Part shown: positions 6,751-64,000 of the stretch, piece after piece
Layout: every line of letters begins with the position of its first letter
Numbering within the stretch: position 1 is the stretch's first letter
Origin: an uncultured Candidatus Saccharibacteria bacterium
GTDB taxonomy: Bacteria > Patescibacteriota > Saccharimonadia > Saccharimonadales > JAGQNJ01
Direction: 5' to 3'
Assembly: GCA_964590205.1 (NCBI GenBank)
Contig: CAZPVO010000002.1
Coordinates: forward strand, 65,005 to 129,004
DNA: 64,000 bases
Made by a program: the position numbers and the translations under genes
Notes under the pieces: model-generated
What the model was told of the DNA's origin: nothing
Database searches by the model: none
Seen by the model: the letters and a program-made list of their open reading frames with translations, nothing else

Positions 6751-7995
6751 CTATTTTTTTGATTCTGTCTCTGTTTTTTCTTCTTTTGGCTCTTCTTCAA
6801 TTTCCTCGTCTTGTTCGTCAGGTTCTGGTTCAGGTTTCTGTTCTGGCTCGCTTGGTTCTTCCTCGGGTTTTTGCTCAACTTCGGGCATAGATTCTTCAAT
6901 CGACTCTTGTGTTTCTTCTTTGGGTTTTTCCTTCAGCGGTTCCTCGACAGGTTTATCCTCGTCTTCGAGTTCAATTGTCTCATCAATATGTCTTTCAACT
7001 TTTGGTTGCTTTTTGCGAGCAACAGCGCTCCGATCGTGGTGATTACCAAAGTCACTTTTCGGTAACTCACCAACCATGTGTTTGAGAACCTCACTCAAAC
7101 TCACCACACCAACTAGATTTTCTTTACTATCGACGACTAAAAACAATGGGTGTTTAGTTTCGGCTAATGTGCCGATAACCTCAGAAATTTTGTCTTCTTC
7201 ATGAACGTAATACACATGCTTGGTCATCAAGTCTTTTACAAAACCACCGTCACGCGCGTCAAGCATATCGGCAATATTCAAAATACCAACGATGTCCTTT
7301 TTGTCCGAACCTTGATACACCGGAAAATGAGTATGGCCACTTTTGTGCAGCTCATCCATGGTAATCGGACCAACAGCGTCACTCGTGGCTACAACTTTTA
7401 CTTGTCGCCAGGGCGTCATGATGTCAGCAACTTTTTTGTCACCAACCAACAAGCTTTGAATAACCATGTCGAGATCTTTTTTGCTTACACGATTATCAAT
7501 TTGGGCCTTTTGCAGCTCGATCATTTCCAGCAAATCCTGCTTGGTATAAAGTCCAGTATGAATTGTTACGGGGCGATAGCGTTCAATCACTCGTGAGGTT
7601 TTGGAAAGCGGCGTGTGTAGCCATTCCAAAATTGCGGCAAGTGGTCGAGCAGTCACTTTTGCCGAAACAACGCCGGCTTTGGTAATGTGTGAACCCGGCA
7701 TCCAGGCAAAACCAAACCACACAGTTGCGATACAGCCAAATAAAGCGACCGGCCACGGAAAAGCTTTGCTCAAAAATACAAAAAAGCCACCGGCACTCAG
7801 TGCAATGATAATCCAAAGTAACATGTCCAAACTAAAGCCAAAGGCCACAACTTTATAAAAAATCTTTGAGATTTCATCGTTTTGATTAGCTTGTCTTTTC
7901 AGCTCTTTCACAGGAACGTGATGATAAGTTTTAAGAAGCGAAATACTCCAGAAGAGTATTCCCGCCAGGAGAAAACCAAATAAAAACGTTAGCAT
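6751..7995 (-). CDS. CNNM/DUF21 + CBS-pair membrane protein, second paralog, with acidic low-complexity C-terminal tail
   Basis: Same DUF21 membrane domain plus CBS pair as 2174..3142 (IMTPWRQV..., VVSLSEVLKHMVGE). The last ~75 aa are an E/K/P-rich tail (EPEQKPEPEPDEQDEEIEEEPKEEK). Confidence 0.8.
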   Translation of the reverse strand: MLTFLFGFLLAGILFWSISLLKTYHHVPVKELKRQANQNDEISKIFYKVVAFGFSLDMLLWIIIALSAGGFFVFLSKAFPWPVALFGCIATVWFGFAWMPGSHITKAGVVSAKVTARPLAAILEWLHTPLSKTSRVIERYRPVTIHTGLYTKQDLLEMIELQKAQIDNRVSKKDLDMVIQSLLVGDKKVADIMTPWRQVKVVATSDAVGPITMDELHKSGHTHFPVYQGSDKKDIVGILNIADMLDARDGGFVKDLMTKHVYYVHEEDKISEVIGTLAETKHPLFLVVDSKENLVGVVSLSEVLKHMVGELPKSDFGNHHDRSAVARKKQPKVERHIDETIELEDEDKPVEEPLKEKPKEETQESIEESMPEVEQKPEEEPSEPEQKPEPEPDEQDEEIEEEPKEEKTETESKK

Positions 7996-8079
7996 GTTAC
8001 TAATGATACTGTTTGGAGACTACTTTTTAAAGTCGGTCAAAAAAGTTATCATAGTACTGCTAAGGAGAGTTATCTATAT

Positions 8080-8754
8080 ATGAGCAAGCGTTTCTTAATT
8101 ATTCTGGCCGTTTTGGTTGTTTTATTTGGTGGATTTATTTGGTTCAGCAAAGCCAAGAAGACGAAAACTTCAACAAGCGGTAACAGTAGTGCGCAGGCAA
8201 CAAACCATGTTTCTGGCGCAGGCAATAAAAAAGTAACACTCACTGAGTATGGTGATTTTCAATGTCCTGCTTGCGGCTCTTACTATCCTTACGTTGAACA
8301 GGTTCGCCAAAAATATGGCGATGATATTACATTTCAGTTCCGTAACTTCCCACTCGTCCAAATTCACAAAAATGCCATGGCCGCTCACCGCGCCGCCGAA
8401 GCTGCGTCAAATCAAGGTAAGTTCTGGGAAATGTACAACATGCTTTATAGCACACAACAAAACTGGACCGAGAGCAGTAACGTTAGTCCGATTTTGGAAT
8501 CTTACGCGCAACAACTTGGTCTTGATATGAATAAATTCCGCGCTGACGTTGCTAGTGAACAAGTGAATGGCACTATTAATGCCGATATTAACTCAGGCCA
8601 ATCACTTGGCATTACAGCAACACCAACATTCTTCATCAATGGCAAAAAACTCGATCCGACACCAGACCGCAGTGTTGAGGCGTTTTCAAAAGTCATTGAT
8701 CAAGCCATCGCCGAGGCTAACCCCGGCCAAGCTCAATCTGCGCCAGCTCAGTAA
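8080..8754 (+). CDS. membrane-anchored DsbA-family thiol:disulfide oxidoreductase
   Basis: N-terminal TM anchor and a thioredoxin-fold CPAC active site (FQCPACGSYYP). Size and layout are DsbA-like. Confidence 0.8.
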   Translation: MSKRFLIILAVLVVLFGGFIWFSKAKKTKTSTSGNSSAQATNHVSGAGNKKVTLTEYGDFQCPACGSYYPYVEQVRQKYGDDITFQFRNFPLVQIHKNAMAAHRAAEAASNQGKFWEMYNMLYSTQQNWTESSNVSPILESYAQQLGLDMNKFRADVASEQVNGTINADINSGQSLGITATPTFFINGKKLDPTPDRSVEAFSKVIDQAIAEANPGQAQSAPAQ

Positions 8755-8879
8755 TTAATAAACTGCTGCCACGAAGGACGCTTAGAGTACACTGGCACTC
8801 GCACTTTTTTTGAGTGCATAACTTTAATTTTGACAGTCATTGGGCTGCCCCTTTCTATTTTTTTATTTTTGTAATTGCA

Positions 8880-8929
8880 AACTGTCCAAACCAATAAGAC
8901 AGTTAAATTGTTTTTTGTTTTATTTTTTG
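8880..8929 (+). terminator. possible intrinsic terminator downstream of the DsbA-like gene
   Basis: 7-bp inverted repeat AACTGTC (8880-8886) / GACAGTT (8898-8904) with an 11-nt loop, followed by the T-rich tract TTGTTTTTTGTTTTATTTTTT. The stem is weak and AT-rich and lies about 126 nt after the stop. Confidence 0.3.
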
Positions 8930-9053
8930 TCTTCTACAGCTCGCGGTTTCCACCTGCTGCATCGAAGTGTACGCCCATTGTGACATAAGCATTTTACCTG
9001 TGTCAACCTTCGTTTCTGATTATGTTTAAAAACTGATATACTAATCGGTAATA

Positions 9054-12715: not shown

Positions 12716-12878
12716 CAAGTGCCATGCCTTCGCAACATTTAGTTGGCATCTTGCACTCGGGACAAACAAAATGACCGTGCACTGGAATTATTGGATAGTG
12801 CCCGCAGTTGTCACAAAAGAATTCTGGCGACTTTTCTTTGACGAGTTCCTCGTAAACTTCATCAGTCTGTTCATTCAT
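12708..12878 (-). CDS. small zinc-ribbon protein (56 aa)
   Basis: CDNC...CPEC four-Cys ribbon. ATG 12878 overlaps the upstream gene stop by 8 nt (ATGAATGA). It resembles the C-terminal ribbon of the upstream protein (CPKC..ICEG versus CPEC..CCEG). The 88-aa form in the track is probably an over-extension. Confidence 0.55.
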   Translation of the reverse strand: MNEQTDEVYEELVKEKSPEFFCDNCGHYPIIPVHGHFVCPECKMPTKCCEGMALDE

Positions 12879-14385
12879 GCCCATCATTCTCCAATTGTTT
12901 TTGCCTAAACATCTCTTCGGCGTGATATATGGTGGCTTCCTCATTATTGTCCTCGGCTTTAATATTACCTTCACAGATTACCTCACCTGTACAAGCATCA
13001 ACTTCGTAGTTACATTTTGGACAACACCAGTTCTTTGTTTCTTTATCCACGACATCTTTTTTATCAACATATTCGTGACACCTAAAGCACCTGATCCGGC
13101 CACTTGTATCATTTTCGCTATTTTCGAGCTGATTAGCTTCACTCAGTTTTGCAGTTTGCAGATCTGGTGCATTACCCAGTTTTGCTTCTTTCTTTTCGGT
13201 ACCTGCGCCACACATCGTAAAGATAGCTTTATCCGTTGCTTGCTCTAACGCTACTTGCATGGCAGCCTCGTCACCATTCTTATAATGAACACGAGCTTGT
13301 TGCAACTCAACGTGTGCTTCCTCGCCAAAAATACGTGTATCAATTCTATCGTCAGTAACAACATAAGCCAAGGCATGTTTCTTGGTAAGTTCATAGAGTT
13401 TTTCGATAGCATCGATTGGCTTATGCAACTCATCTGCCGAGGCGACTATCTCTTGTACTATCTTGCCAACCGTTTCTTTCAGGTCTTTCTCACGTTGACG
13501 ACATACTTCCAAGTACTGGTCGTAGTCCTGAACTTCTTGATTAGAGCCAAAGAATAATCCACCGGCCAGCTCGTCGTATAGTTTGACGATGTCAAGAACA
13601 CCATTTGGCATGTATTTCTTTGGAACTAATAGAGGTCGCTCCAGAAGCTCTGTTACACTCAAGCCTTCAGAACTTTGGCCAAAGAATTCGTATATTTTTT
13701 TAACTGTTTCGATATCGTGTCGTGGACCGTCTTTTTCGGTTACTCCGGCCACAAAAGCTGATTGAGTTACAAGTTTACCGTCTTTGACCGTCGTCGCTTG
13801 CAGTACACCTGTCATTGTTGCACCAAAGAAGCTGTGATCCTCTAGCTGATCTCGCGGAATATCATCAGGGCAGAGGGATGAAACTAACAAGTAGCAGTCG
13901 TCGAGTTCATCTGTACGAGCATAATGACCAATCCGGGTACCGTTAACCGTTTCGGCTTTAGTTCGATTCAGAATAGGTTCAAATTTTGAAGTATATTTGA
14001 GCGCATTCGTATAAACAGCGGTGTGAGACTGGCCAAATTGCACAATAGAGCCGTCTGGTTTAATTTCCGAAACAATATCAGTTATGTGTCCTGACTTATA
14101 AATACCCTCAATGGTAGCAATACTGGCATTTTTATTTATATTTGGCAGCGCGCTGCCGTTACCATTTGCTGCTTCTTTTACAGCACCAAGGAGTGACATG
14201 CTGTCTTCATCAACTGGCTCGACAACTATTTCTTTTGATGCAAGTGCTCGTCCGATAAATCGTGCAGCATCGGCTCGAATCAGCTTATCTTGTTCTAACT
14301 GATCAACTCGAATAGCATGTGGTCCTCGTGGGCCGTCAGGCTGTTCAATCCCAGGTAGTACTTCCGCAAAGGCTGCTCCGGCCAT
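12871..14385 (-). CDS. uncharacterised ~504-aa cytoplasmic protein with C-terminal CxxC...CxxC zinc ribbon
   Basis: Long clean ORF with no family I can name and no signal peptide or TM helix. CFRC...CPKC lies near the C-terminus. The track start 14415 (MFPAREQDFF) sits inside the leader hairpins. ATG 14385 (MAGAAF) follows the U-tract, with AGGA 7 nt upstream. Either start is possible. Confidence 0.7.
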   Translation of the reverse strand: MAGAAFAEVLPGIEQPDGPRGPHAIRVDQLEQDKLIRADAARFIGRALASKEIVVEPVDEDSMSLLGAVKEAANGNGSALPNINKNASIATIEGIYKSGHITDIVSEIKPDGSIVQFGQSHTAVYTNALKYTSKFEPILNRTKAETVNGTRIGHYARTDELDDCYLLVSSLCPDDIPRDQLEDHSFFGATMTGVLQATTVKDGKLVTQSAFVAGVTEKDGPRHDIETVKKIYEFFGQSSEGLSVTELLERPLLVPKKYMPNGVLDIVKLYDELAGGLFFGSNQEVQDYDQYLEVCRQREKDLKETVGKIVQEIVASADELHKPIDAIEKLYELTKKHALAYVVTDDRIDTRIFGEEAHVELQQARVHYKNGDEAAMQVALEQATDKAIFTMCGAGTEKKEAKLGNAPDLQTAKLSEANQLENSENDTSGRIRCFRCHEYVDKKDVVDKETKNWCCPKCNYEVDACTGEVICEGNIKAEDNNEEATIYHAEEMFRQKQLENDGHE

Positions 14386-14410
14386 AAAAAAATCCTGCTC
14401 GCGGGCAGGA
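14386..14410 (-). terminator. intrinsic terminator of the leader expression platform
   Basis: Minus-strand hairpin UCCUGC-CCGCGA-GCAGGA (14410..14393) followed by U7 (14392..14386). Confidence 0.55.
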
Positions 14411-14520
14411 AACATAACTTGTGCTCCTGCTCGGGAGGCTTAGTAGCCAGATCGGACTTTAACCGTTGCGGCACAGTGAGGGAATTTCACCCTCTTCTTG
14501 GCATCTTTATTTTGTTAAGT
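14386..14520 (-). promoter_or_regulatory. cobalamin-type riboswitch candidate (class II / AdoCbl-variant-like aptamer plus terminator/antiterminator platform)
   Basis: Minus-strand nested helices: CUUA/UAAG, GCCA/UGGC, and GAGGG-UGAAAUU-CCCUC (14494..14478). These are followed by ACGGUUAAAGUCCGA and CGAGCAGGAG containing an SD. From memory the blocks align closely with class-II cobalamin aptamers of the env8 type. The duplicated CGAGCAGGA (14433..14425 and 14401..14393) flanks UCCUGCCCG (14410..14402). Confidence 0.55.
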
Positions 14521-27594: not shown

Positions 27595-29328
27595 ATGGAT
27601 CGTTCGCATTCTATAGAAGTACCCCAAGATCTTGACATGAATCAAGAAATTAACAATATTGACCCCTACCAAACTCGATCAGTTTTCAAACAAATAAGAA
27701 GGGTGGGCACACGTGCACTAGTAGCACTTGGTATGACTTTTACTTCAGTAGTTGGCTCGCAAGCTACTGAAGTAGCAAACCACGCTCAAATTGCAGAAGC
27801 AATGACAAATGATTACCCTAGTCCTTTGATGCCATGTGTGGCACAAGGCCCAAACTACGGCAAGACAACGGGCACTGGCTACTGGTGTGATGGATACCAG
27901 TGGGGTGATCTAAAGACTGGTAATCAAAACTCATCCCGTGGTTTTGGATACAGAAACTGTACTGACTGGGCGGCATTTCGCGCTCAAGAATTAACAGGAG
28001 TATTAGTACCTTACGGTGCAAAAATGGGGGATGCTGGTATGTGGGATAATAATGCCCCTACGTATGGCTATACTGTAACCTCTGTGCCAGAAGCAGGTGA
28101 TCTTGCAGTTTGGGATGGTACTAGAACTAACCCATATGGACATGTTGCTGTCGTTGAGTCTGTTAATCCTGACGGGACAGCTAATATTTCCGAATATAAC
28201 CATGGTATGGATGGAAACTATGGGACCAGAACGAGTATAGTTGCCAATCACTATATAGATCTTAATGGTCCAAATAAGCCTGCCCAAACAGTTCCAGCTG
28301 TTGAAGGGCCAACTTTCATGCCATCAATGGTTCAACGACCTTCTGGTGAAACCGTTACTGTCGATGTTGGCCCAAACAATAGCTTAGACTATTACTTTAA
28401 TGCACTTGGTTCTGGAGTGTGGGGGAAATTAGCAACCGGTGGACAAGCCTTTTCTTCGCCAGCTATGATTCAACGTTCAAATGGAGAAACGGATATTATT
28501 ACGCAGGGGCCCAATCATAGTTTGGATTATTACTTCAACAGCCAGGGTTCCAGTACATGGGGTAAACTCGCAATCGCAGGAGCAAATGCTGCTTTTTCCG
28601 CACCAGCAGTTGTACAACGTTCAAATGGAGAAACTGATGTTGCAGTTGTGGGCCCGAACAACAGTCTGGATTTTTACATTAATTCGCTTGGCTCACCAAA
28701 CTGGGGCAAGTTAACTGTTCCCGGTGCCCAGGCTTTCTCAAAACCAGCTATGGTGCAAAGATCATCTGGCGAAACAGATATAGCCACCCTTGGGCCAGAC
28801 AATACTTTGAATTTTTACTATAACCCTGCCGGAACAACCAGCTGGGGAGTTAGTCACGTCGCAGCCAATGGCTGGGCATGGAGTGCACCATCAATGATCC
28901 AACGCCCAACTTCAGGAGAAACAGACATTGCTGTTCAAGGCCCAAACAATAGTCTCGATTTTTACATGAATACCCAGGGTTCACCATATTGGGGGAGATT
29001 GCCAGTTGCAGCCAGTGGTTCGACTTTTGCCACACCAAATCCACCGTCAATGACACAAAGGCTCAATGGTGAAACGGATATTGTTGCTCGTGGGCCAAAC
29101 GACACAGCCAACTTTTTCTTTAACACATTTGGTACTTCAAACTGGAACAAAGTTCCGGTTGCCACCCCCGGTTTTAGTTTTAGACAGCCAGCAATGATTC
29201 AAAGGCCAAACAATGAAACAGATCTAGCTGTCGTTGGACCAAATAACCGACTAGATTTTTATTTTAACCAGTATGGCTCGCCGTATTGGGCAAACTTCCC
29301 GATCGCAGGCAACAATACTGCGTCCTGA
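27595..29328 (+). CDS. secreted CHAP-domain peptidoglycan hydrolase fused to seven tandem ~47-aa propeller-like repeats
   Basis: SD AGGAGGA. CHAP catalytic pair context: RNCTDWAAFRA (Cys) and YGHVAVVESV (His). Seven repeats of (P/A)xM(V/I)QRxxGETD(I/V)xxxGPNNSLDFYxNxxGSxxWG follow. Confidence 0.75.
   Translation: MDRSHSIEVPQDLDMNQEINNIDPYQTRSVFKQIRRVGTRALVALGMTFTSVVGSQATEVANHAQIAEAMTNDYPSPLMPCVAQGPNYGKTTGTGYWCDGYQWGDLKTGNQNSSRGFGYRNCTDWAAFRAQELTGVLVPYGAKMGDAGMWDNNAPTYGYTVTSVPEAGDLAVWDGTRTNPYGHVAVVESVNPDGTANISEYNHGMDGNYGTRTSIVANHYIDLNGPNKPAQTVPAVEGPTFMPSMVQRPSGETVTVDVGPNNSLDYYFNALGSGVWGKLATGGQAFSSPAMIQRSNGETDIITQGPNHSLDYYFNSQGSSTWGKLAIAGANAAFSAPAVVQRSNGETDVAVVGPNNSLDFYINSLGSPNWGKLTVPGAQAFSKPAMVQRSSGETDIATLGPDNTLNFYYNPAGTTSWGVSHVAANGWAWSAPSMIQRPTSGETDIAVQGPNNSLDFYMNTQGSPYWGRLPVAASGSTFATPNPPSMTQRLNGETDIVARGPNDTANFFFNTFGTSNWNKVPVATPGFSFRQPAMIQRPNNETDLAVVGPNNRLDFYFNQYGSPYWANFPIAGNNTAS
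28315..29325 (+). repeat. seven tandem coding repeats (46-52 codons each) inside the CHAP protein
   Basis: The QR..GET cores start at residues 245, 291, 339, 386, 434, 486 and 534 of the 577-aa product. The repeats are diverged at DNA level. Confidence 0.7.
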
Positions 29329-55382: not shown

Positions 55383-56912
55383 TTATTGCACGGTGCTTAT
55401 AATGGTGTATTTGTTGCGATTAACGCCGGCATTATCGATAGCACTATTCATCTGATTAATAGCAATACTTTTTGTTAATGGATCATAGTCAAACTGACCT
55501 GTCGCTGGATTATAGGCAAGCGAACCAATATAAGGAGTGATGTAAATAACATTGCCATATGGTGTTACTGTCAGGATTGGATTGCTTTCGATTGCCAAAA
55601 CTTTTTTATCAATACTATCAGTGTCTTGTTTTGCACTATCAATACTTAGTGCAAATTCTTGTTTTTTGTTGTCCGTGACACTTACAATGTAGCCGTTCAT
55701 TAATGGCTGCATTCGGCTAAAGTTAAAGTCGCCGAGACTATAGTCGATGTAAGCTGTGCGCTGATCTACGTCAAACTTAAAGATAGCTTTTTGTGACTTA
55801 CTGGCGGCTAGAAGACCAGTCGGCGTACTTAGAATGCTATTGATATCGTAGACTTTGTAGAGCTCTCGTGGTTTTTTGCCGGCAATATCGTAAACAGTCA
55901 TAATGTTCGAAGAGTTAAGCAGGCAGAACTTGTTTGTTCCGCAAAATTGAGCACCAGATAAGTCGCCAGGTATCACAAAGTGCTTAACTGCGCCAGGTTT
56001 GCCGTAGTCGACTTCCGTTTGACCAGTTACGGGCGCTGCGCCAGGATTACCGCCAGGATTTCCCTGATAATATGCTGTTAGCAAAGTGCCATTACTTGCA
56101 TCAATGATATCTTGATTTGCCGAAAGACCTTTGGTTTTTGGTTTTCCAAGAGACATAGTAGTTGGCGAGCCATTAATATCTGAGTAGTAGAGCATATTAC
56201 TAAAGTCCGGCGAATATACCAAAAAACCTTTATCGAACGCTCGAACATTGTAAGTCGAATTAGCGTCCGCACCATTCAGTGCTATACCCTTAGCGTCGAC
56301 AAGATTAAGAACGTCTGATGCGTTGCCAAGTTTGTAAACTTTGTGTTGAGGATTGTCGGCGGCTGTTTTTATTAGAATGTAATTGCCACTTGGTGTCGTA
56401 AATGTTCCTTCGACCTGACCAAGCTGTCCGGGTATCGTTGGGTTCGTAACATAAGTTGGAAAATCTTTTGTCGGCGGTACGTGGTACTTAACGTCTTTAT
56501 ACATGCCGCCAGGACAACTATATGAAAAAGATGATCCATTAATACTGTCCATGCATTGTTCCGGACTTTTTCCTACAAAGACTCGCTCATGCTCGGGTAG
56601 CGGCTTGATTGTCACGGTAGTTTTTCTGAGGAATCCGTGTAATGATGTGACCTCCATAAAACTGTCGGTGCCATTTTGGGCAAGAACTTCGTAAGAACCT
56701 TTGGGCAATTTCTTCCGCACTGTTTTATCAGACGAATTAAACGTGAGTGTTTTCTTGTCACCTTGTTTGTATAGCTGATATGCATATTGTCCATTGCCAG
56801 TTTGGGTGAGTTCAATTCGGGACTGTTGGCTTAACCAAATAAGTGCATAGACTGCGAGAATAGCAATGACAGTAAGAACGATGTAACGCCTGTATCTTCT
56901 AGCATATTCCAT
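55383..56912 (-). CDS. membrane-anchored extracytoplasmic hypothetical protein (beta-rich), last gene of the T4SS-linked block
   Basis: N-terminal basic stretch plus TM helix (YIVLTVIAILAVYALIWL). The remaining ~470 aa are G/N/T/Y-rich with no recognisable motif. Confidence 0.5.
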   Translation of the reverse strand: MEYARRYRRYIVLTVIAILAVYALIWLSQQSRIELTQTGNGQYAYQLYKQGDKKTLTFNSSDKTVRKKLPKGSYEVLAQNGTDSFMEVTSLHGFLRKTTVTIKPLPEHERVFVGKSPEQCMDSINGSSFSYSCPGGMYKDVKYHVPPTKDFPTYVTNPTIPGQLGQVEGTFTTPSGNYILIKTAADNPQHKVYKLGNASDVLNLVDAKGIALNGADANSTYNVRAFDKGFLVYSPDFSNMLYYSDINGSPTTMSLGKPKTKGLSANQDIIDASNGTLLTAYYQGNPGGNPGAAPVTGQTEVDYGKPGAVKHFVIPGDLSGAQFCGTNKFCLLNSSNIMTVYDIAGKKPRELYKVYDINSILSTPTGLLAASKSQKAIFKFDVDQRTAYIDYSLGDFNFSRMQPLMNGYIVSVTDNKKQEFALSIDSAKQDTDSIDKKVLAIESNPILTVTPYGNVIYITPYIGSLAYNPATGQFDYDPLTKSIAINQMNSAIDNAGVNRNKYTIISTVQ

Positions 56913-56951: not shown

Positions 56952-59858
56952 CTACTTAACCTTTGTTCCATAGCCAGTTATGTAAGGTGCATCCAACGGT
57001 TGCTGAGACATTCGTACAGTGTCACCATCGTTACCACCAATAATAGTTGCGATGTTACCATTAACGGCTATCACGATTGCGACGTGTTGATTGTATGGCG
57101 CGATATTATTATCGTTAATTTGAATATCACCAGGTTGGGGTGTATAGCCGGCTTTATCATGATAACCACCATTCTTTTCAAACCAAGCTTTAACACCAGT
57201 AACAGACGCTAGCCTCCATCCGCCGCTTGTGCCGTCAGTAAAAGGAGTACCTGCTTCTTTGAGAACCCAGCTTACGAAATCGGCACACCATTCTTCTTCA
57301 ACTCCATCCGAATATTTCTTCTGACAGTCTGATCCCTTTTTGCAGTCTGAGCCGTGCTCGGCCTGTTCTTTTTTGGCTACTTCTACAATACTACTGGCGG
57401 CTCCACTACTCGAGCTGTTTGAGTCGCTGCAACCTCCCGACGAACCTGTCGGGCTACCAGAAGCTGCACCTGCACCCGAACCGTACCTGGCAAGAATATC
57501 CTGAGCAAAGCTAAGTCTAGTCGCTTCTCGCTCTACGCCAGCTCTTTCATACTCTTTCAGGAAGACATGTTCAGCTTCTTCAACGGTCGTTGTCTTTTTT
57601 AGATCATCCCCTGCTGCCTTTTCGTTTAGTGTGGAGTTTCCTTCCATTTGACGCCAGACCAAGTCAAGCTGAAAAGCTAAATCACCTGGGCCGGCAGAAG
57701 AGCCGCTGGCTTTATTGTATACATCAAGCTCTGGCAATATTTTGGTTCCAGGCGTAAATTGCACGATACCATAGCCTGCATTGCCCGGTGTGTCGCTGTC
57801 GCCGCCTGGAGTTGGTGTGTTCTCGACTCGCCGTGGGTTAATGCCTGACTCAGCTTTCATGTTTCCAAGAACTCCAGCAATTTTGAAAGGCTCTTTATAA
57901 CCATCTTTTGTTGCAAAGAAATTCCAAGCCTTTTGTTCATTGTCTGTGCCGGCTAATTGCTGGGCAGCACCACCACAGCAATCACTGGCTGCTTGTGAAC
58001 CACTCTGGCCATTTTTAGCTGCAAGAACTTTGTTGGCTGATGCCTGAATCTGGGCCTTAAGTTGTGGGTCTGCATTTGCGGCTGCTTCAAGCTTATCGAT
58101 AATTGTCTTGAGCTGTTTTTCACCACCAAACAGAGCAACATCGGTTCCTGCTTTAACGGCGTTAACTACGACGTCTGGGTTTGCCACATACTTCGCAACA
58201 GGCCCAAGAGAACCTGCTGACAAGTCATCTGTTACAACAACACCACCAAACTTATAATCCTTACGCAGTAAATCATACGCTGGTTTGCTCAGCGATGCGG
58301 GTTGGCCGTTGGTGAGACCTGGAACATTATAGTTGCTCATCATAACCCAGGCATTGCCGGCTGAAGATGCTAGCTTTTCGTAAGGCTTAAGGTCACTTGC
58401 TTTTAGCTGATCAAGCGCTGGAGTGTTACCAATTGTTACGTCAGAGTTAACGGTTGTATTACCAATACCTGGGAAATGTTTGAAGGTCGGAATAACCCCC
58501 CCGGCAGTTAAACCGTCGGCGAAAGCCTTAGCTTTTTCAACAATCACGTCAGGATTGTTAGAGAACGAGCGGTCAATTTTACCAATTGCATCACTGTTTG
58601 GGTTATCGATGTCAAGCACCGGCGCAAAATCTAGTCCAATTCCAGCTGATTTCATTTTGCTGGCAGCACCATTTGCGGCTGTTTTTACTTGATCCGGAGG
58701 CATTGTTCCCATCTGTCTGGCGCTGGAAGGCAGGATTTTCATACGGTCAATTTTTCCACCTTCTTCGTCAATACTAACGAGTGGCGCTGGGCTAAATTTG
58801 CTTTTGGCTTCAGTAATATTTGCCGGGTCGAGCATTTCATTTGAGAATTCATTCGTCACAAAGATTCCGCCGACGTGATAGGTGCCAATCGCTTCAATCG
58901 CTTCTTGTTTTGTATCGGTTCGAACAAATAATATCTGTGCAATTTGATCGCGCAAGTTAGTCAGATTTCCTTGTCCTGGTGGTGCGCTGGTTGGCTGAGA
59001 GGTTGGATCTGTCGGATTTGCTGGCGCTGCTTGGGCCGACGCATGTCCGTTAAACAACCTGTTAACTTTTGCCAGGAAATTTTTGCTGCCCTGGTCTTGT
59101 AAATATGACGCTGCACCGGCAGGCTTTGATGAATTACCTGTAAGACCATTTGTGACAAGTTCAATCAGTTTTATCTGCCCGGAGCTATTGGGGTGAATTC
59201 CGTCACCACCCAGCAGTTTAGCAGGGTCGTGTGTTCCGTCTCCGCCGGGATCAATAGCACTAGCATAATCAAGGACTTTTATTGTTCCGGCGGCGTCGAG
59301 TGCCTTGAGTTTTGTGTTCATTGGCACGACGTAAGGAGCAACATTACCGGCTGTAACGGCGATATTGACCCAGTATATTTGAGCCGATGAGTTGACGCCT
59401 TTAAACTTACTGATAATTGTGTCGGGATCATTGGATTGAATACCGCCGTTTGTACCTAGGGCAATCACAATTGCTTGGGCATCATGAATGGCGCTCTGGT
59501 CGGTATTAAAAGCATTTTCGCCAGTACCTTGTGTCCCAACCTGTGCAGCTGAGTCCTGACCAGGCGTAACCCACGAGCGCCCAACACGGGCACTAATGGT
59601 GGCGTTAGGAAACTTTTGTTTATAGGTTGTTGCTACACCAGCAGTTATAGAGTCACCTAAAATGTATACTTTTGCATCACTACTTAAAGATCCCGCGTCT
59701 GTTTGAACTGTTTGTCCACACTCTTTAGCGTAGTAGGTTGTATTGTGGATGACAGCATTAATGTCATCCCAGCTAATCGAAGCTCTTACAATCGGCACGA
59801 AGATAGCCAGTATGCTAAATGACAGGACTGATATAAATGCAATAAGTCGTTTTATCAT
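56952..59858 (-). CDS. 968-aa secreted multi-domain cell-wall hydrolase: SGNH esterase + GH3 beta-N-acetylhexosaminidase-like + phage-tail-type lysozyme + CHAP
   Basis: Signal/anchor MIKRLIAFISVLSFSILAIF. SGNH: VYILGDSITAG...GDGIHPN (59154-59672). GH3: SIDEEGG, KHFPGIGNT, VVTDDL (58014-58961). Lysozyme-like: AGVLGNMKAESGINP...GYGIVQFT (57474-57941). CHAP: EWCADFVSW...NQHVAIV (56955-57326). Confidence 0.8.
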   Translation of the reverse strand: MIKRLIAFISVLSFSILAIFVPIVRASISWDDINAVIHNTTYYAKECGQTVQTDAGSLSSDAKVYILGDSITAGVATTYKQKFPNATISARVGRSWVTPGQDSAAQVGTQGTGENAFNTDQSAIHDAQAIVIALGTNGGIQSNDPDTIISKFKGVNSSAQIYWVNIAVTAGNVAPYVVPMNTKLKALDAAGTIKVLDYASAIDPGGDGTHDPAKLLGGDGIHPNSSGQIKLIELVTNGLTGNSSKPAGAASYLQDQGSKNFLAKVNRLFNGHASAQAAPANPTDPTSQPTSAPPGQGNLTNLRDQIAQILFVRTDTKQEAIEAIGTYHVGGIFVTNEFSNEMLDPANITEAKSKFSPAPLVSIDEEGGKIDRMKILPSSARQMGTMPPDQVKTAANGAASKMKSAGIGLDFAPVLDIDNPNSDAIGKIDRSFSNNPDVIVEKAKAFADGLTAGGVIPTFKHFPGIGNTTVNSDVTIGNTPALDQLKASDLKPYEKLASSAGNAWVMMSNYNVPGLTNGQPASLSKPAYDLLRKDYKFGGVVVTDDLSAGSLGPVAKYVANPDVVVNAVKAGTDVALFGGEKQLKTIIDKLEAAANADPQLKAQIQASANKVLAAKNGQSGSQAASDCCGGAAQQLAGTDNEQKAWNFFATKDGYKEPFKIAGVLGNMKAESGINPRRVENTPTPGGDSDTPGNAGYGIVQFTPGTKILPELDVYNKASGSSAGPGDLAFQLDLVWRQMEGNSTLNEKAAGDDLKKTTTVEEAEHVFLKEYERAGVEREATRLSFAQDILARYGSGAGAASGSPTGSSGGCSDSNSSSSGAASSIVEVAKKEQAEHGSDCKKGSDCQKKYSDGVEEEWCADFVSWVLKEAGTPFTDGTSGGWRLASVTGVKAWFEKNGGYHDKAGYTPQPGDIQINDNNIAPYNQHVAIVIAVNGNIATIIGGNDGDTVRMSQQPLDAPYITGYGTKVK

Positions 59859-62800
59859 GGTGCATCCGCCGCGCAGTTTAGATGAAAATGGGCGCCTTTG
59901 GCTTGGGTGGTTGCAGGTGTATCAAGGTCAGCACTTCCACCTTTAGGGCGCATGATATCGTTAGCAGGACCTTTATACTGATCATTTGGTAATCCAATCC
60001 AGGACTGTCCTGGCAGAAGCGTCGCAGCATCTTTTATGAATTCTAGTGAGCGGTCATTGAAGCCGGAGTAGTCCTCGCCTGTCGGAACACCGAGATTGTC
60101 GATATTCCCAAGGTCAACAGCTAACCCGGCAGCATGTGGTCCACCACCGCCAGTTGTTTGCCAGATAGAGAACTTATACTTCTGAGCCAATTTTAGTATT
60201 ACGGCCAAAATAGTGCGCTTCATCTGAGGATTAAGCAAGTTAGCGCCACCCTGTATATTGCCGGTAGCTTTTATTTGTTGAATCAGCTCATCTGGAGTGC
60301 CTTGTGGCAAGTTTGGATCAACAAGCGAGGCGCTGCCTGAACCACTATCACCTGTTGGATCGGCAATATCATTCAGGTGGTCAAGTACGTTGTTATTTCG
60401 TTTTGAAAGCCGCCAGCGCATAACCATCGCTGGGCCAAATTCATTATTATCCTTGCCAAGGTTATGTGGTGAGCAAAGACCTCCATTTTCGTATACATTT
60501 CCATCTGAGTCGCGTTGGATGTCTCCGCCTGATAATAATTCACCCATGGTTTTCGTGAAGCACTCGTTATACTTCTTTTCTATATCACCTTCCTTGCCAG
60601 ATTGCTTAAGGATTACATCATTAGCAAGAGGGAAATAGGTTGGGTCATTTTGAATGGTTTTGAGTTCATCCTCAGACCAGCACCATTGAATATTATGATA
60701 GTTTGTATCAGAGTTATTATTATTGGCTTGCGCAAAAGCCATTTGTTGCTTGAATGGATTCAACGCACCAGCCAAACCACTGCTAAAAATCGAGGTGTTA
60801 AAGCGGCTGGCTGTACCTGCAAGCGTTTGACCAAACGTCTGTACGTTGGTTAGTTTTTCGGACATGCCAACACCCATATTAACCAGTAGCGAATCAGGAT
60901 TATCGAGAGCTAAGTAGCGCTGATATACACTCTCTTGACCTTTTTGATCATTGAGATAAGCTACATTGGCCTGATCACTTGACGCCGCTTCTGGTTGGGT
61001 GAGTGGTCGCCCATACATCATCTGACGACACATCTCATTACCGGCAAGGTTACCTCCTACATCTGCTGCATTGGCCAGGTCATCCTGCCGTAGCGTACCT
61101 CCTTGCAGCGCATCCAGGCGCGACAAGACTATAGTCTTAGCCAATATCGTCAATCCAGCTAATCCAGCTGCCTGTCCAAGCAAGTTAACGACGGCCTTTT
61201 TATTAATTATTGTTCGACGAACAGAGGCAATTATTTCCTTAGAAGCCACTTTCCAGGAACCTTCAGCAAGCGCGTCTGCCGCCTTCGAATCACCATCAGT
61301 GACAACAGCCAACGCTACTTCAATAACACCAATAGCTGCACCAACTCTCCAGTCAGCTACTGTATGGCAAACAGGCGAAACAACAGTATCAAATTTTTGG
61401 CCTCCAGGGAAAAGTGCGGCGAATAGACCAAAGGTTCCTCCGGCCCCAGCTTGAGGGCTTGAGACTTTGTCGGTCGGAACTGGTATATTCCGATTTCGGG
61501 CTCGTTGCTCTGGTATTGATGGACTAATGTCCCCAAGGGCACGATTGGTTGCCCCCACTGCTTCAGCAGTGGTCTTGCCAGCTTTTTGCTGGTCTGCCGC
61601 AGACTCAATACTGAAGAATTGTTTTATTGCCGTGCCACTTTGAGCATCAACAGTGCCTTGCGAATGCTCAACCGATCCATCGTAAATTGTGCACATTGCC
61701 AGAGCAACTTGGGCGACTGTTGAAAACGTCTCAACAGCATGGATTTTAGGATCATTAATTTGGCTTTCAATAGCTTTATCTGCGCCATCTGAGATTGTTC
61801 TCGAGGATGCATAGGTCTGGTCGGCTTTTTGCTTTGCTATTTCTGCCGGGTCTGTTGGTGCATTTTGCGAGGGTCCAGTTAGCGCTTCGGCACACTGCGG
61901 GTCAGCTATACATGCGTCTTGCTGTGCCTGTGCATCGGTAACTGCATCATCGATTGCCGGTATAACGCTACCTGTCGACGGTTTCTCATTGACTCTTTCG
62001 ACCCTGTTCTTGAGTTCCAGAGCATCTGCTGCGTTCTCCTTAGTATTAGTGAAATCTTTGCCAAACTTATCCCACCAATGCAGCTTAACGCCAACTTTTT
62101 CGTAGATTTTGTTGGCCACGGCACTACGAATAAATGTATGATTCGTTTGCATGGCATTATCCAAATTAGCACTGATTTCAGCACCAAATGTGATGTCATC
62201 TTTCGGAGTCAACGGGTTGACCTTGTTTTTCACTCGTTGCCACAAGTTCACCTTATCAATCGGTATTTCATTACCCTTTATGCGTACAGCTTCTATACGC
62301 TGATAACCACTCCACGTCGGTTCACTATAGACAAAATCGATGTCACCGGTTGCCTGCATGTTTTTAAACGTCCGTTCAGGTCGCCACTTATCAAGCTTGC
62401 CCCATGTATCACTGCGAACACCTTCATAAAAACTTTTAAGTTTACCTTTATCAGCTTCAGAGGCAGTATCGACGGCAATTTTTTCACCGCTAACTTCGTC
62501 CATACTTTGCCGAAATGCTCGACCTGTTCGGGCCATTTGAAAGCCGGCAATATGCTCGGCGAGGTTGGGGATCTTAAGCGTCGCAAATAGTATGATAGCT
62601 ACAAATAATAATATAGCCAGACCGCTTCCACCCAGGCCAAAACCAAAGAGAGCCTTCTTTTTTCCGCTACTTAAATTGGCGGCTCTATTGCTGATTTTAT
62701 TTTTAAAACCGCTCAAAAAGCCGCTTCCACCACCATCTTGCTGGCCACTGTCGCCAGATCCTTTGCCAGAAGCCTTTACTTTGCCAACAGCTGCACCGGC

Positions 62801-63058
62801 ACGTCTGTAGAAGCCGCCACCAGTTTTATCCTGCAAAGCCTCTTGTTCATTATGGGCGGGGCCAGCAGAGGGGCTTTCTTCATCGTAGAGGCCAGAGCCA
62901 TCTGCTTCTTTGAGCGCCAAATCAGCCGGGTTCGGTGTTTGACGGTTGGCGTTGTTGCGACGAAAATCCTCAATTGGAGGTTGATTCCATTGGTGTTCAA
63001 GACCATCTGAATCTTGGTCTTCTTCACTATCGGGTCGTGATGCTGTACCTGGTCCCAT
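59855..63058 (-). CDS. 1067-aa T4SS-associated membrane protein with disordered N-terminus and C-terminal LAS/M15-type metallopeptidase-like motif set
   Basis: About 145 aa of acidic/Gly-rich N-terminus, then a TM helix (GGSGLAILLFVAIILFATL) and a large central region with further hydrophobic segments. The C-terminus has GPHAAGLAVDL (HxxGxAxD) and GAHFHL (HxH). ATGA overlap with the downstream hydrolase gene. Confidence 0.6.
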   Translation of the reverse strand: MGPGTASRPDSEEDQDSDGLEHQWNQPPIEDFRRNNANRQTPNPADLALKEADGSGLYDEESPSAGPAHNEQEALQDKTGGGFYRRAGAAVGKVKASGKGSGDSGQQDGGGSGFLSGFKNKISNRAANLSSGKKKALFGFGLGGSGLAILLFVAIILFATLKIPNLAEHIAGFQMARTGRAFRQSMDEVSGEKIAVDTASEADKGKLKSFYEGVRSDTWGKLDKWRPERTFKNMQATGDIDFVYSEPTWSGYQRIEAVRIKGNEIPIDKVNLWQRVKNKVNPLTPKDDITFGAEISANLDNAMQTNHTFIRSAVANKIYEKVGVKLHWWDKFGKDFTNTKENAADALELKNRVERVNEKPSTGSVIPAIDDAVTDAQAQQDACIADPQCAEALTGPSQNAPTDPAEIAKQKADQTYASSRTISDGADKAIESQINDPKIHAVETFSTVAQVALAMCTIYDGSVEHSQGTVDAQSGTAIKQFFSIESAADQQKAGKTTAEAVGATNRALGDISPSIPEQRARNRNIPVPTDKVSSPQAGAGGTFGLFAALFPGGQKFDTVVSPVCHTVADWRVGAAIGVIEVALAVVTDGDSKAADALAEGSWKVASKEIIASVRRTIINKKAVVNLLGQAAGLAGLTILAKTIVLSRLDALQGGTLRQDDLANAADVGGNLAGNEMCRQMMYGRPLTQPEAASSDQANVAYLNDQKGQESVYQRYLALDNPDSLLVNMGVGMSEKLTNVQTFGQTLAGTASRFNTSIFSSGLAGALNPFKQQMAFAQANNNNSDTNYHNIQWCWSEDELKTIQNDPTYFPLANDVILKQSGKEGDIEKKYNECFTKTMGELLSGGDIQRDSDGNVYENGGLCSPHNLGKDNNEFGPAMVMRWRLSKRNNNVLDHLNDIADPTGDSGSGSASLVDPNLPQGTPDELIQQIKATGNIQGGANLLNPQMKRTILAVILKLAQKYKFSIWQTTGGGGPHAAGLAVDLGNIDNLGVPTGEDYSGFNDRSLEFIKDAATLLPGQSWIGLPNDQYKGPANDIMRPKGGSADLDTPATTQAKGAHFHLNCAADAP

Positions 63059-63101: not shown

Positions 63102-64000
63102 CTATACCCCTGGTCTCAACTGATTATTCAAATCAATAGTACCCTGTTCGCCGGGTGCACTGCCAATCTGCTCAATTTGCTGGATTTGCTCCGGATTACT
63201 GGTAATCAAACTTGTTTCCGTTGCACTGGCAGTAATTTGAATATGCACATGATTCTGACCAGCAAAGAATAATCCCTGGCCAACCGGGAATTGACTGAGT
63301 CGCTTACGTTCTTCGCTCGTGAGCTTAAACACATCAGCCAGCACATCAACCGCAGATGTCGATTGCTTAAGCAGAATTTGCATCGAGGCGTTAGCAACGA
63401 TTGCTCGCCCAAGCCGACTACCCATAAAGTCTTCAACGTCCTGGCTGATAGTAGTAACGCCCAGGTTATACTTACGTGCTCGCTTAGCGAGAGAGAACAA
63501 GAAGTTAGCCGAATCTTCGTACTTCATAAATTGCCAGGCCTCATCCACAATCAAGAGACGACGTTTTTTGTCTGTTTTTGTGCGATTCCAAATATAGTTA
63601 AGCGCAATATACATGGCGACCGGGCGCAATTCGTCTTCAAGGTCACGGACGTTAAAGACGATCATTTGATTATCAATATTGATATTTGACTGCTGCGAGA
63701 ATATACCCGCAAACGTACCACTAGTATATTTGCGTAACCTTTGAGCAAGCTGAGGACCAGTGTTGCCCATGTGCAACAATGTGTCGTACAAGTCAATAAT
63801 TGTTGGTGGCTGAGTGTTGTGAGTCAATGGATCCGCCGTAATGCCAGCCTTGGCGTAGGTTTCAATTAAGGCTGCGTCAAGATCAGCTTCTTCTACAGGT
63901 GATAAGGCTGGAATCGTTGCGCCAGACATCTGAGCTTGCGCGCCACCCATCATGAGTCGCAACAAACCATGCAGTGTTATCAAGTTACTTCGCAGCGGAT
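63102..64000 (-). CDS. VirB4-family type IV secretion ATPase, C-terminal part (gene continues past the right window edge)
   Basis: Walker B context RRLLIVDEAWQFM, then KYNLGVTTISQDVEDF and QILLKQ, typical of VirB4/TrsE/CagE ATPases. The frame stays open to position 64000. Confidence 0.8.
   Translation of the reverse strand, partial: PLRSNLITLHGLLRLMMGGAQAQMSGATIPALSPVEEADLDAALIETYAKAGITADPLTHNTQPPTIIDLYDTLLHMGNTGPQLAQRLRKYTSGTFAGIFSQQSNINIDNQMIVFNVRDLEDELRPVAMYIALNYIWNRTKTDKKRRLLIVDEAWQFMKYEDSANFLFSLAKRARKYNLGVTTISQDVEDFMGSRLGRAIVANASMQILLKQSTSAVDVLADVFKLTSEERKRLSQFPVGQGLFFAGQNHVHIQITASATETSLITSNPEQIQQIEQIGSAPGEQGTIDLNNQLRPGV

Follow-up and report, generated by a model that had tools for sequence, protein, structure and literature searches.

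What would a small-genome epibiont do with a cell-wall hydrolase that joins four different catalytic-type modules in one polypeptide, and what ties that enzyme to a type IV secretion system (T4SS) encoded next to the replication genes? We address this question for a 64,000-nucleotide stretch of contig CAZPVO010000002.1 from an uncultured Candidatus Saccharibacteria bacterium (the window), toward one end of which lies the gene for a 968-residue hydrolase built, from its N-terminus, of an SGNH module, a GH3 module, a lysozyme-like module of the family Phage_lysozyme2 (PF18013, here PL2) and a CHAP module. The T4SS of Patescibacteria has been reported as the first such system that the organism encoding it needs in order to grow, and its action is still to be explained (PMC12857230, PMC10633639); the linked hydrolase is the component of that system with the most easily tested biochemistry. 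We lean toward the view, reasonably probable in our judgment given the comparative sequence evidence, that this protein serves the Saccharibacterial T4SS as its wall-opening enzyme, comparable to VirB1, CwlT, TraG of pIP501 and PrgK, with de-O-acetylase and N-acetylglucosaminidase modules as accessories.

One gene, four modules

The hydrolase gene occupies positions 56952 to 59858 of the window, stop codon included, as one open reading frame (ORF) on the minus strand. A first-pass annotation of the DNA had reported this single 968-residue ORF, correctly, and had left the strand unstated; a plus-strand reading of the same interval was rejected for its many stops. Might the fusion be an assembly chimera? 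The identical protein was recovered on an independent Logan contig, and the SGNH-GH3-lysozyme-CHAP architecture recurs in assemblies from JGI, ENA and NCBI. Because protein or architecture is thus seen across four data sources, a chimera was rejected and the hydrolase is not an artefact of assembly.

Pfam places the four modules without overlap. The proposal of four catalytic-type modules in the first-pass annotation has therefore held up in the Pfam scan, in profile and fold support for the SGNH module and in an architecture comparison across relatives; the motifs quoted there, the linkers rich in P/T or S/G (P/T/A/Q or S/G by our reading) and the ATGA overlap with the upstream gene are all present. 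Domain identities and catalytic-residue conservation are direct observations, the latter counted over 36–126 relatives, depending on the module. SGNH Ser70, GH3 Asp544 and CHAP Cys858 and His925 are conserved in the alignments, not substituted.

The lysozyme-like module (residues 636–795; positions 57474–57953, minus strand; E670/S671, Q700 and E771) matches PF18013 over residues 639–790 with an E-value of 7e-26 and 91.5 bits against a cut-off of 28.2. Its motif GNMKAESG spans residues 665–672, and both E670, the catalytic Glu of the GN-x3-ES motif, and E771 are retained in 124 of 126 relatives. The module gives a weak direct phmmer match to phi29 gp13 (E 5e-4) and a tblastn match to Bacillus phage tail lysins (E 1e-12), and Staphylococcus phage tail lysins are also related. 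The CHAP module (residues 836–968; positions 56955–57353, minus strand) is supported by Pfam (PF05257, residues 854–942, E 5e-10; 40.2 bits, cut-off 26), by conservation and by a profile with weak matches to Gsp amidase and the LysK CHAP domain; it carries WCADF at residues 857–861 and HVAIV at 925–929. C858 and H925 are present in 36 of 36 relatives and N943 in 33, the other three having Asp there. The alignment behind the full-length AlphaFold2 (AF2) model mixed CHAP and M23 tails, which left the CHAP part poor, and that model was not used for fold searches.

The GH3 module (N-terminal type; residues 298–616; positions 58011–58967, minus strand) matches Glyco_hydro_3 (PF00933) over residues 302–612 with an E-value of 1e-51, and the full-length AF2 model has a predicted local distance difference test (pLDDT) score of 85–92 over this domain. 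Its motifs are DEEGG (364–368), KHFPGIGNTTVNSD (460–473) and TDDL (543–546), and its best solved relatives are the LpqI-type structures 4yyf and 6gfv (E ~1e-50 and 1e-48). The nucleophile D544, together with K460, H461 and D364, is invariant in 120 of 120 relatives, and R430 is present in 119.

The SGNH module (residues 56–245; positions 59124–59693, minus strand; S70, G93, N137, D219, H222) received a weak Pfam call, Lipase_GDSL_2 (PF13472) over residues 66–228 with an E-value of 9e-7 and 30.0 bits, slightly below the curated cut-off of 32.9. Two independent lines support it: a profile of 15 family members matches the C-terminal SGNH domain of Staphylococcus aureus OatA (E 5e-13), followed by PatB and Streptococcus pneumoniae OatA, and an AF2 model of residues 56–248 (pLDDT 94) finds OatA as the top Foldseek hit (E 2e-8) with PatB near the top, at template-modeling scores of 0.65–0.79. 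The expected blocks are present as GDS (68–70, with S70), GxN (GTN, 135–137, with N137) and D219-x-x-H222 (DGIH, 219–222); of 80 relatives, 79 retain the Ser, 79 the Asn, 79 the His and 46 the Asp.

Ahead of these modules, the N-terminus reads MIKR, 20 hydrophobic residues and VRA|S, with the hydrophobic segment at residues 6–24 and an A-x-A-like motif that is retained in orthologues. Residues 1–26 (positions 59781–59858, minus strand) thus look like a Sec-type signal peptide or N-terminal anchor, and export is predicted.

The linkers hold a separate observation. Cysteine is scarce in the hydrolase family (0.85% over 165 relatives), yet each inter-module linker has a conserved one; in the window protein these are C47, the conserved pair C627–C628 that precedes the PF18013 module, and C810. 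In 119 of 126 relatives Cys occurs within 35 residues upstream of the PF18013 module, where 0.26 would be expected by chance, and 104 of those have exactly two, mostly as CC or CxC. All 33 of 33 CHAP modules have Cys in the S/G-rich linker ahead of them, and the stretch from signal peptide to first module contains a single Cys in 78 of 126 proteins. These residues could form disulfide staples around a CC hub, or could be processing or attachment sites; a literature search found no description of them.

Active sites of the two accessory modules

Which way does the SGNH module work? The closest solved relatives, the C-terminal SGNH domain of OatA (PDB 6vjp/6wn9, 5ufy) and PatB (7tjb, 8tlb), share the Ser/His and GTN oxyanion residues with the window module at an identity of only ~20%. 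Unlike these, the window module has no apparent AT3 or MBOAT acetyl-donor partner: a Pfam/NCBIfam scan detected neither domain in the 968-residue protein or its two flanking genes. Because of this, and of the kinship to OatA and PatB, the module is probably an O-acetyl-peptidoglycan esterase that would de-O-acetylate N-acetylmuramic acid (MurNAc). A non-homologous alpha/beta esterase is found at the N-terminus of two relatives, alone in P0006 and after an SGNH module in P0017, which suggests that esterase activity is what selection keeps.

The GH3 module poses a different problem. The first-pass annotation had called it NagZ-like; membership of GH3 and kinship to LpqI stand, and assignment as a canonical NagZ was rejected. 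All known NagZ enzymes are reported to use an Asp-His catalytic dyad (PMC6572805), which is replaced here by N471-S472-D473: the query KHFPGIG-NTTV-N471-S-D473 aligns columnwise to the D-S-H of 4yyf, 6gfv and 5iob, and it reaches 115.7 bits with the NCBIfam NagZ model NF003740, whose cut-off is 207. The LpqI/NagZ enzymes (6gfv, 4yyf) share with the window module the single-domain GH3 fold, KHFPG, the Asp nucleophile and the D/R/K/H residues that bind substrate; the window module differs in its Asn-x-Asp (N-x-D) site and in being fused into a multi-module protein of exported type.

This replacement is part of an active-site switch at residues 460–473 (positions 58440–58481, minus strand), seen across loci L002–L081. 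The site is bimodal in the 120 relatives, 40 having KHFPG-H-G..D-x-H and 67 having KHFPG-[LIF]-G..N-x-D, and three positions co-vary; in the window protein the His that precedes the dyad region (KHFPG-H) becomes Ile. The N-x-D state is widespread, being found in free-standing GH3 genes of Actinomyces and Microbacterium, in many Saccharibacteria and in one solved structure (PDB 5bu9), and a literature search found no biochemistry for this state or for 5bu9. In a rough neighbor-joining tree the N-x-D clade of the window is nested in a D-x-H clade, which hints at more than one switch between the two states. We propose that D473 supplies the carboxylate acid/base of the module.

Are all four modules enzymes of the expected kind? 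The GH3 module might instead bind carbohydrate and target the protein, or the SGNH module might act as an O-acetyltransferase or transacetylase. The missing NagZ dyad and the low NagZ model score fit the former, and the transferases OatA and PatB as best structure and sequence matches fit the latter. Against a binding role stand the conserved D544, K460, H461, D364 and R430, the occurrence of N-x-D in free-standing actinobacterial GH3 enzymes and in 5bu9, and the nature of the N-x-D state itself: being discrete and co-varying at three positions, it is not random decay, and with the invariant nucleophile it makes a decayed pseudo-enzyme unlikely. Against a transferase stands the lack of a detectable AT3 or MBOAT domain in the protein or its two flanking genes. 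We consider it unlikely, on balance, that one of the modules is non-catalytic or a transferase.

A secretion locus beside dnaA

On the plus strand, dnaA-dnaN-recF (positions 51601–55375) form a conserved chromosomal anchor, toward which the T4SS cluster runs from the minus strand. The last gene of that cluster (55383–56912, minus strand) starts 39 nucleotides past the hydrolase with its own ribosome-binding site and encodes a 509-residue protein with one N-terminal transmembrane segment and no family assignment. Upstream of the hydrolase, a 1067-residue protein with few predicted transmembrane segments (residues 145–163 and 622–640) is encoded at 59855–63058 on the minus strand; its stop codon overlaps the hydrolase start as ATGA, and the two genes are translationally coupled. 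Next comes a VirB4-like T4SS ATPase of the CD1110/TraC type (63102–64000, minus strand), the gene being cut by the window end and its frame, for the C-terminal part, open to the edge. The hydrolase is thus encoded together with VirB4.

Synteny, like the domain identities, is observed directly. At least 10 Saccharibacteria loci share the order VirB4, ~1000-residue membrane protein, hydrolase, recF-dnaN-dnaA, and farther upstream the relatives have PrgI (VirB3-like), TraC-like and TrbL_3 genes. The related loci all come from Saccharibacteria metagenome-assembled genomes, the nearest complete chromosome being that of an 840-kb uncultured Candidatus Saccharibacteria. Signal segment, VirB4 synteny and these related loci bear out the predicted export, T4SS linkage and small-genome epibiont that the first-pass annotation had envisaged. 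The cluster is the T4SS described for Patescibacteria as proximal to the replication origin (oriC), relaxase-less and MPF_FATA-like, with a monoderm VirB4 of the CD1110/TraC type (PMC12102498); according to the literature these systems lack a relaxase or coupling protein. Origin as a mobile element or prophage was rejected: in all genomes examined the cluster adjoins dnaA-dnaN-recF, phage and plasmid records match the PL2-CHAP part in fragments only, and base composition shifts little, the G+C fraction being 0.46–0.47 toward the T4SS end (56–64 kb) and 0.40–0.44 (about 0.42) over the rest of the window.

By gene order the hydrolase corresponds, as a positional orthologue, to SEML1_0006 of Ca. 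Southlakia epibionticum ML1, a 643-residue protein with a GH73-type glucosaminidase (PF01832), PF18013 and a cysteine proteinase (Wang et al. 2023, PMC10633639). SEML1_0006 and its T4SS neighbors scored as essential in transposon sequencing, and SEML1_0007, upstream of it, has a C-terminal Hedgehog/DD-peptidase domain (PMC10633639). The two proteins, compared by locus position and described domains, share the arrangement dnaA-dnaN-recF, small genes, hydrolase, ~1100-residue protein with C-terminal peptidase and VirB4, as well as a core of PF18013 and cysteine peptidase. They differ upstream of that core, where SEML1_0006 has the GH73-type module and the window protein has SGNH and GH3. GH73 is an N-acetylglucosaminidase family, and its presence at the GH3 position supports a role for GH3 directed at N-acetylglucosamine (GlcNAc)-MurNAc.

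The 1067-residue protein stands in the SEML1_0007 position, and its C-terminal ~160 residues (59858–60337, minus strand) are probably a LAS/M15-type zinc peptidase, the fifth wall-active module of the locus. This segment is strongly homologous to the C-terminal module of the hydrolase relatives P0160 and P0122 (E 1e-59 and 1e-48), and a pattern H-x6-D ... H-x-H is invariant in its family. A small family profile gave weak Hedgehog/DD-peptidase structure matches (E ~0.03), and single-sequence searches of the C-terminus against Pfam and PDB gave nothing. The module is itself mobile: it is the terminal module of P0160 and P0122, and in the L002 orthologue Peptidase_M23 takes its place. By this assignment, two translationally coupled genes supply five wall-active modules.

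The locus also bears on a more mundane explanation, namely that the protein is a housekeeping autolysin for the cell's own growth, budding or daughter-cell separation, found near T4SS genes by mere location close to oriC. Multi-module autolysins that combine glucosaminidase, muramidase and peptidase are common in monoderms, the essentiality of SEML1_0006 would also fit a division role, and a second CHAP protein in the window indicates that wall hydrolases also occur away from the T4SS genes. However, the synteny with VirB4 and the membrane protein survives deep divergence. Compared with the nearest complete genome, the VirB4 C-terminal fragment is 91% and DnaA 88% identical, and the hydrolase and its membrane neighbor are 47% and 46% identical; between genomes whose VirB4 C-terminal fragments are 70–91% identical, hydrolase identity is 26–47%. 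Such fast divergence, like the module swapping described below, is unexpected for a constant self substrate, and the GH43 variant (at the same locus position) and alginate-lyase variant make little sense for self-peptidoglycan. We regard an autolysin as very improbable.

Comparison with known hydrolases

How does the protein compare with the hydrolases of other transfer systems? PrgK (pCF10), TraG (pIP501) and CwlT (ICEBs1) are likewise encoded in VirB4-containing clusters of the MPF_FATA type and likewise have an N-terminal export or anchor segment (PMC12102498). Like the window protein, they combine one module that cuts glycan with a cysteine peptidase (CHAP or NlpC/P60), and they presumably breach the wall locally. 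They have two or three modules, with SLT or other lysozyme families. The window protein differs from them in its PF18013 glycosidase and in the added SGNH and GH3 modules; no SLT domain of the VirB1/TrsG lytic-transglycosylase type was matched in it by Pfam, and orthologue L009 shows a weak SLT match.

An Enterococcus faecalis plasmid, pBE15_1 (L082, NZ_CP110064.1), encodes at 7791–8963 a 390-residue protein of PF18013 and an NlpC/P60/CHAP-like module, again a two-module core, without SGNH or GH3 and with ~32% identity over the lysozyme part only. A TrbC/VirB2-family gene and an unannotated one for 848 residues precede it, and a MobL relaxase is encoded downstream; no VirB4 was identified in the plasmid stretch examined. 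The protein is a candidate Firmicutes equivalent of the Saccharibacterial core enzyme, set in what would be a monoderm transfer system with a pilin.

Phage tail lysins are a further point of reference. The phi29 protein gp13 (PDB 3csr/3csq) and the SPO1-like 'tail lysin 2' have a homologous PF18013 module, and gp13 joins its lysozyme to an M23 peptidase, as the hydrolase relatives P0007 and P0011 do. Unlike them, the window protein belongs to no virion; it is encoded on the chromosome and has a Sec signal and extra modules. Among phage and plasmid records, coverage of the PL2-CHAP part reaches no more than 47%, and none has both PF18013 and CHAP matches in one place.

A constant core among exchangeable modules

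Is the four-module layout peculiar to this genome? An exhaustive HMMER search of 1.84 billion representatives returned 448 matches at E<1e-30, and a domain census was taken of 165 relatives, in which module swapping is directly apparent. GH3-PL2 was found in 45, SGNH-GH3-PL2 in 25, SGNH-PL2-CHAP in 16 and the full SGNH-GH3-PL2-CHAP in 6. Most of the 25 SGNH-GH3-PL2 proteins carry a further, non-CHAP C-terminal region of ~170–230 residues, of mixed or unassigned type; among the C-terminal tails of PL2 relatives Pfam assigns M23, Peptidase_C39_2 and Amidase_2/3, and NlpC/P60-like and M15/LAS-like tails were read from sequence motifs only. The first-pass annotation had called four modules unusual, and relative to characterized T4SS hydrolases they are; by the census, the SGNH-GH3-lysozyme-peptidase layout is common within Saccharibacteria and only its CHAP-ended form is rare (6/165).

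The swapping extends to modules of other kinds. A GH43-PL2-CHAP relative (L083, 99–2309) occupies the same dnaN/dnaA-proximal locus position, an SGNH-PL2-CHAP variant is also found at the dnaA-proximal locus, and an Alginate_lyase2-PL2-CHAP relative, P0165, is known from its protein sequence. The substrates of GH43 enzymes and alginate lyases are polymers other than peptidoglycan. Taken over the compared sequences, the design is a conserved, nearly constant lysozyme core amid fast-swapping modules. The replacement of the esterase by another fold, and of GH3 by GH73, suggests selection on activities rather than on folds, and the extra modules suggest tuning to the wall of the host bacterium.

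T4SS-linked multi-module hydrolases are already known, as is the essential flag on a Saccharibacterial one. In the literature library searched, we found no description of OatA-like SGNH and N-x-D GH3 additions to Saccharibacterial T4SS hydrolases, nor of the module-swapping pattern at the T4SS hydrolase locus.

Whose wall is opened?

From these modules we infer enzymatic activities, a substrate and the wall that is cut. The signal peptide would direct Sec export. The PF18013 core would cut the glycan backbone and CHAP the stem peptides or the MurNAc-L-Ala amide, a pairing of glycosidase and peptidase that is also the design of phage tail lysins and of the conjugation hydrolases of monoderms. 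The OatA/PatB-like SGNH module most likely removes the 6-O-acetyl groups by which the lysozyme would be blocked, and the LpqI-like GH3 would act as a beta-N-acetylglucosaminidase with a non-canonical Asn-x-Asp acid/base arrangement. Together with the LAS-type peptidase of the coupled upstream protein, these activities would breach peptidoglycan locally and make way for the T4SS and its pilus; the wall opened would be the cell's own and probably also that of an actinobacterial host. Module exchange, rapid divergence and the occurrence of GH43 and alginate-lyase variants suggest that the host wall is acted on.

Several points weigh against a wall-opening T4SS enzyme of this description. The nearest SGNH relatives transfer O-acetyl groups and are no esterases; the GH3 module lacks the Asp-His dyad that defines NagZ; the full-length AF2 model has low confidence in the CHAP part; the 1067-residue neighbor is not recognizable as VirB6; and the essentiality of SEML1_0006 is no proof of action through the T4SS. 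NagZ and LpqI are, moreover, exo-acting recycling enzymes, which leaves the part of GH3 in producing the breach uncertain. The same property bears on the suggestion in the first-pass annotation that glycan strands would be cleaved in two ways: two glycosidase-type modules are indeed present, and the claim itself is unproven.

An alternative is that the enzyme serves mainly to harvest the host wall. It would de-O-acetylate, cut the glycan, trim GlcNAc and cut peptides, supplying an auxotrophic epibiont with GlcNAc, muropeptides and amino acids in soluble form, and the T4SS linkage would reflect shared regulation where the two cells touch. In its favor, the GH3 module is a member of the LpqI/NagZ recycling lineage (PMC6572805), and its closest non-Saccharibacterial relatives are actinobacterial. 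Fast divergence, extensive module exchange and the GH43 or alginate-lyase modules of relatives all fit harvesting, as do stand-alone secreted-type GH3 genes elsewhere in Saccharibacteria genomes (L011, L012, L015). Against it are the strictly conserved position in the T4SS cluster, the translational coupling and the fact that no amino-sugar transporter or catabolic gene was seen beside the hydrolase. Harvesting overlaps with breach-opening for the T4SS and differs from it in emphasis; as the main function we find it rather doubtful.

A more novel reading, which we offer tentatively as a possibility, treats the enzyme as a 'can-opener' for the host envelope, with a specificity determined by the exchange of modules. 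A nearly constant PF18013 core would be combined upstream with exchangeable modules (OatA-like SGNH, GH3, GH73, GH43, alginate lyase) and downstream with peptidases (CHAP, M23, C39-like, M15/LAS, amidases), matched to the peptidoglycan chemistry and surface polymers of the respective host; the GH3 Asn-x-Asp site would be an uncharacterized catalytic variant that arose more than once, and released GlcNAc and muropeptides would feed the epibiont. If the extra modules are directed at wall features of particular hosts, for instance O-acetylation or polymers other than peptidoglycan, then the module set could predict host range and would give a direct handle on how epibionts open the host envelope.

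Other features of the window

Elsewhere in the window, tblastn found no paralogues of the four modules, and no tRNA genes were detected within its 64 kb. An AdoCbl-II (cobalamin) riboswitch (RF01689; 14440–14518, minus strand; 43.6 bits) lies directly upstream of an ORF at 12871–14415 on the same strand, which encodes 514 residues without a Pfam match. The second CHAP protein, unrelated to the hydrolase and outside the T4SS locus, has 577 residues and is encoded at 27595–29328 on the plus strand, with its CHAP domain at residues 115–202 (E 3.5e-19).

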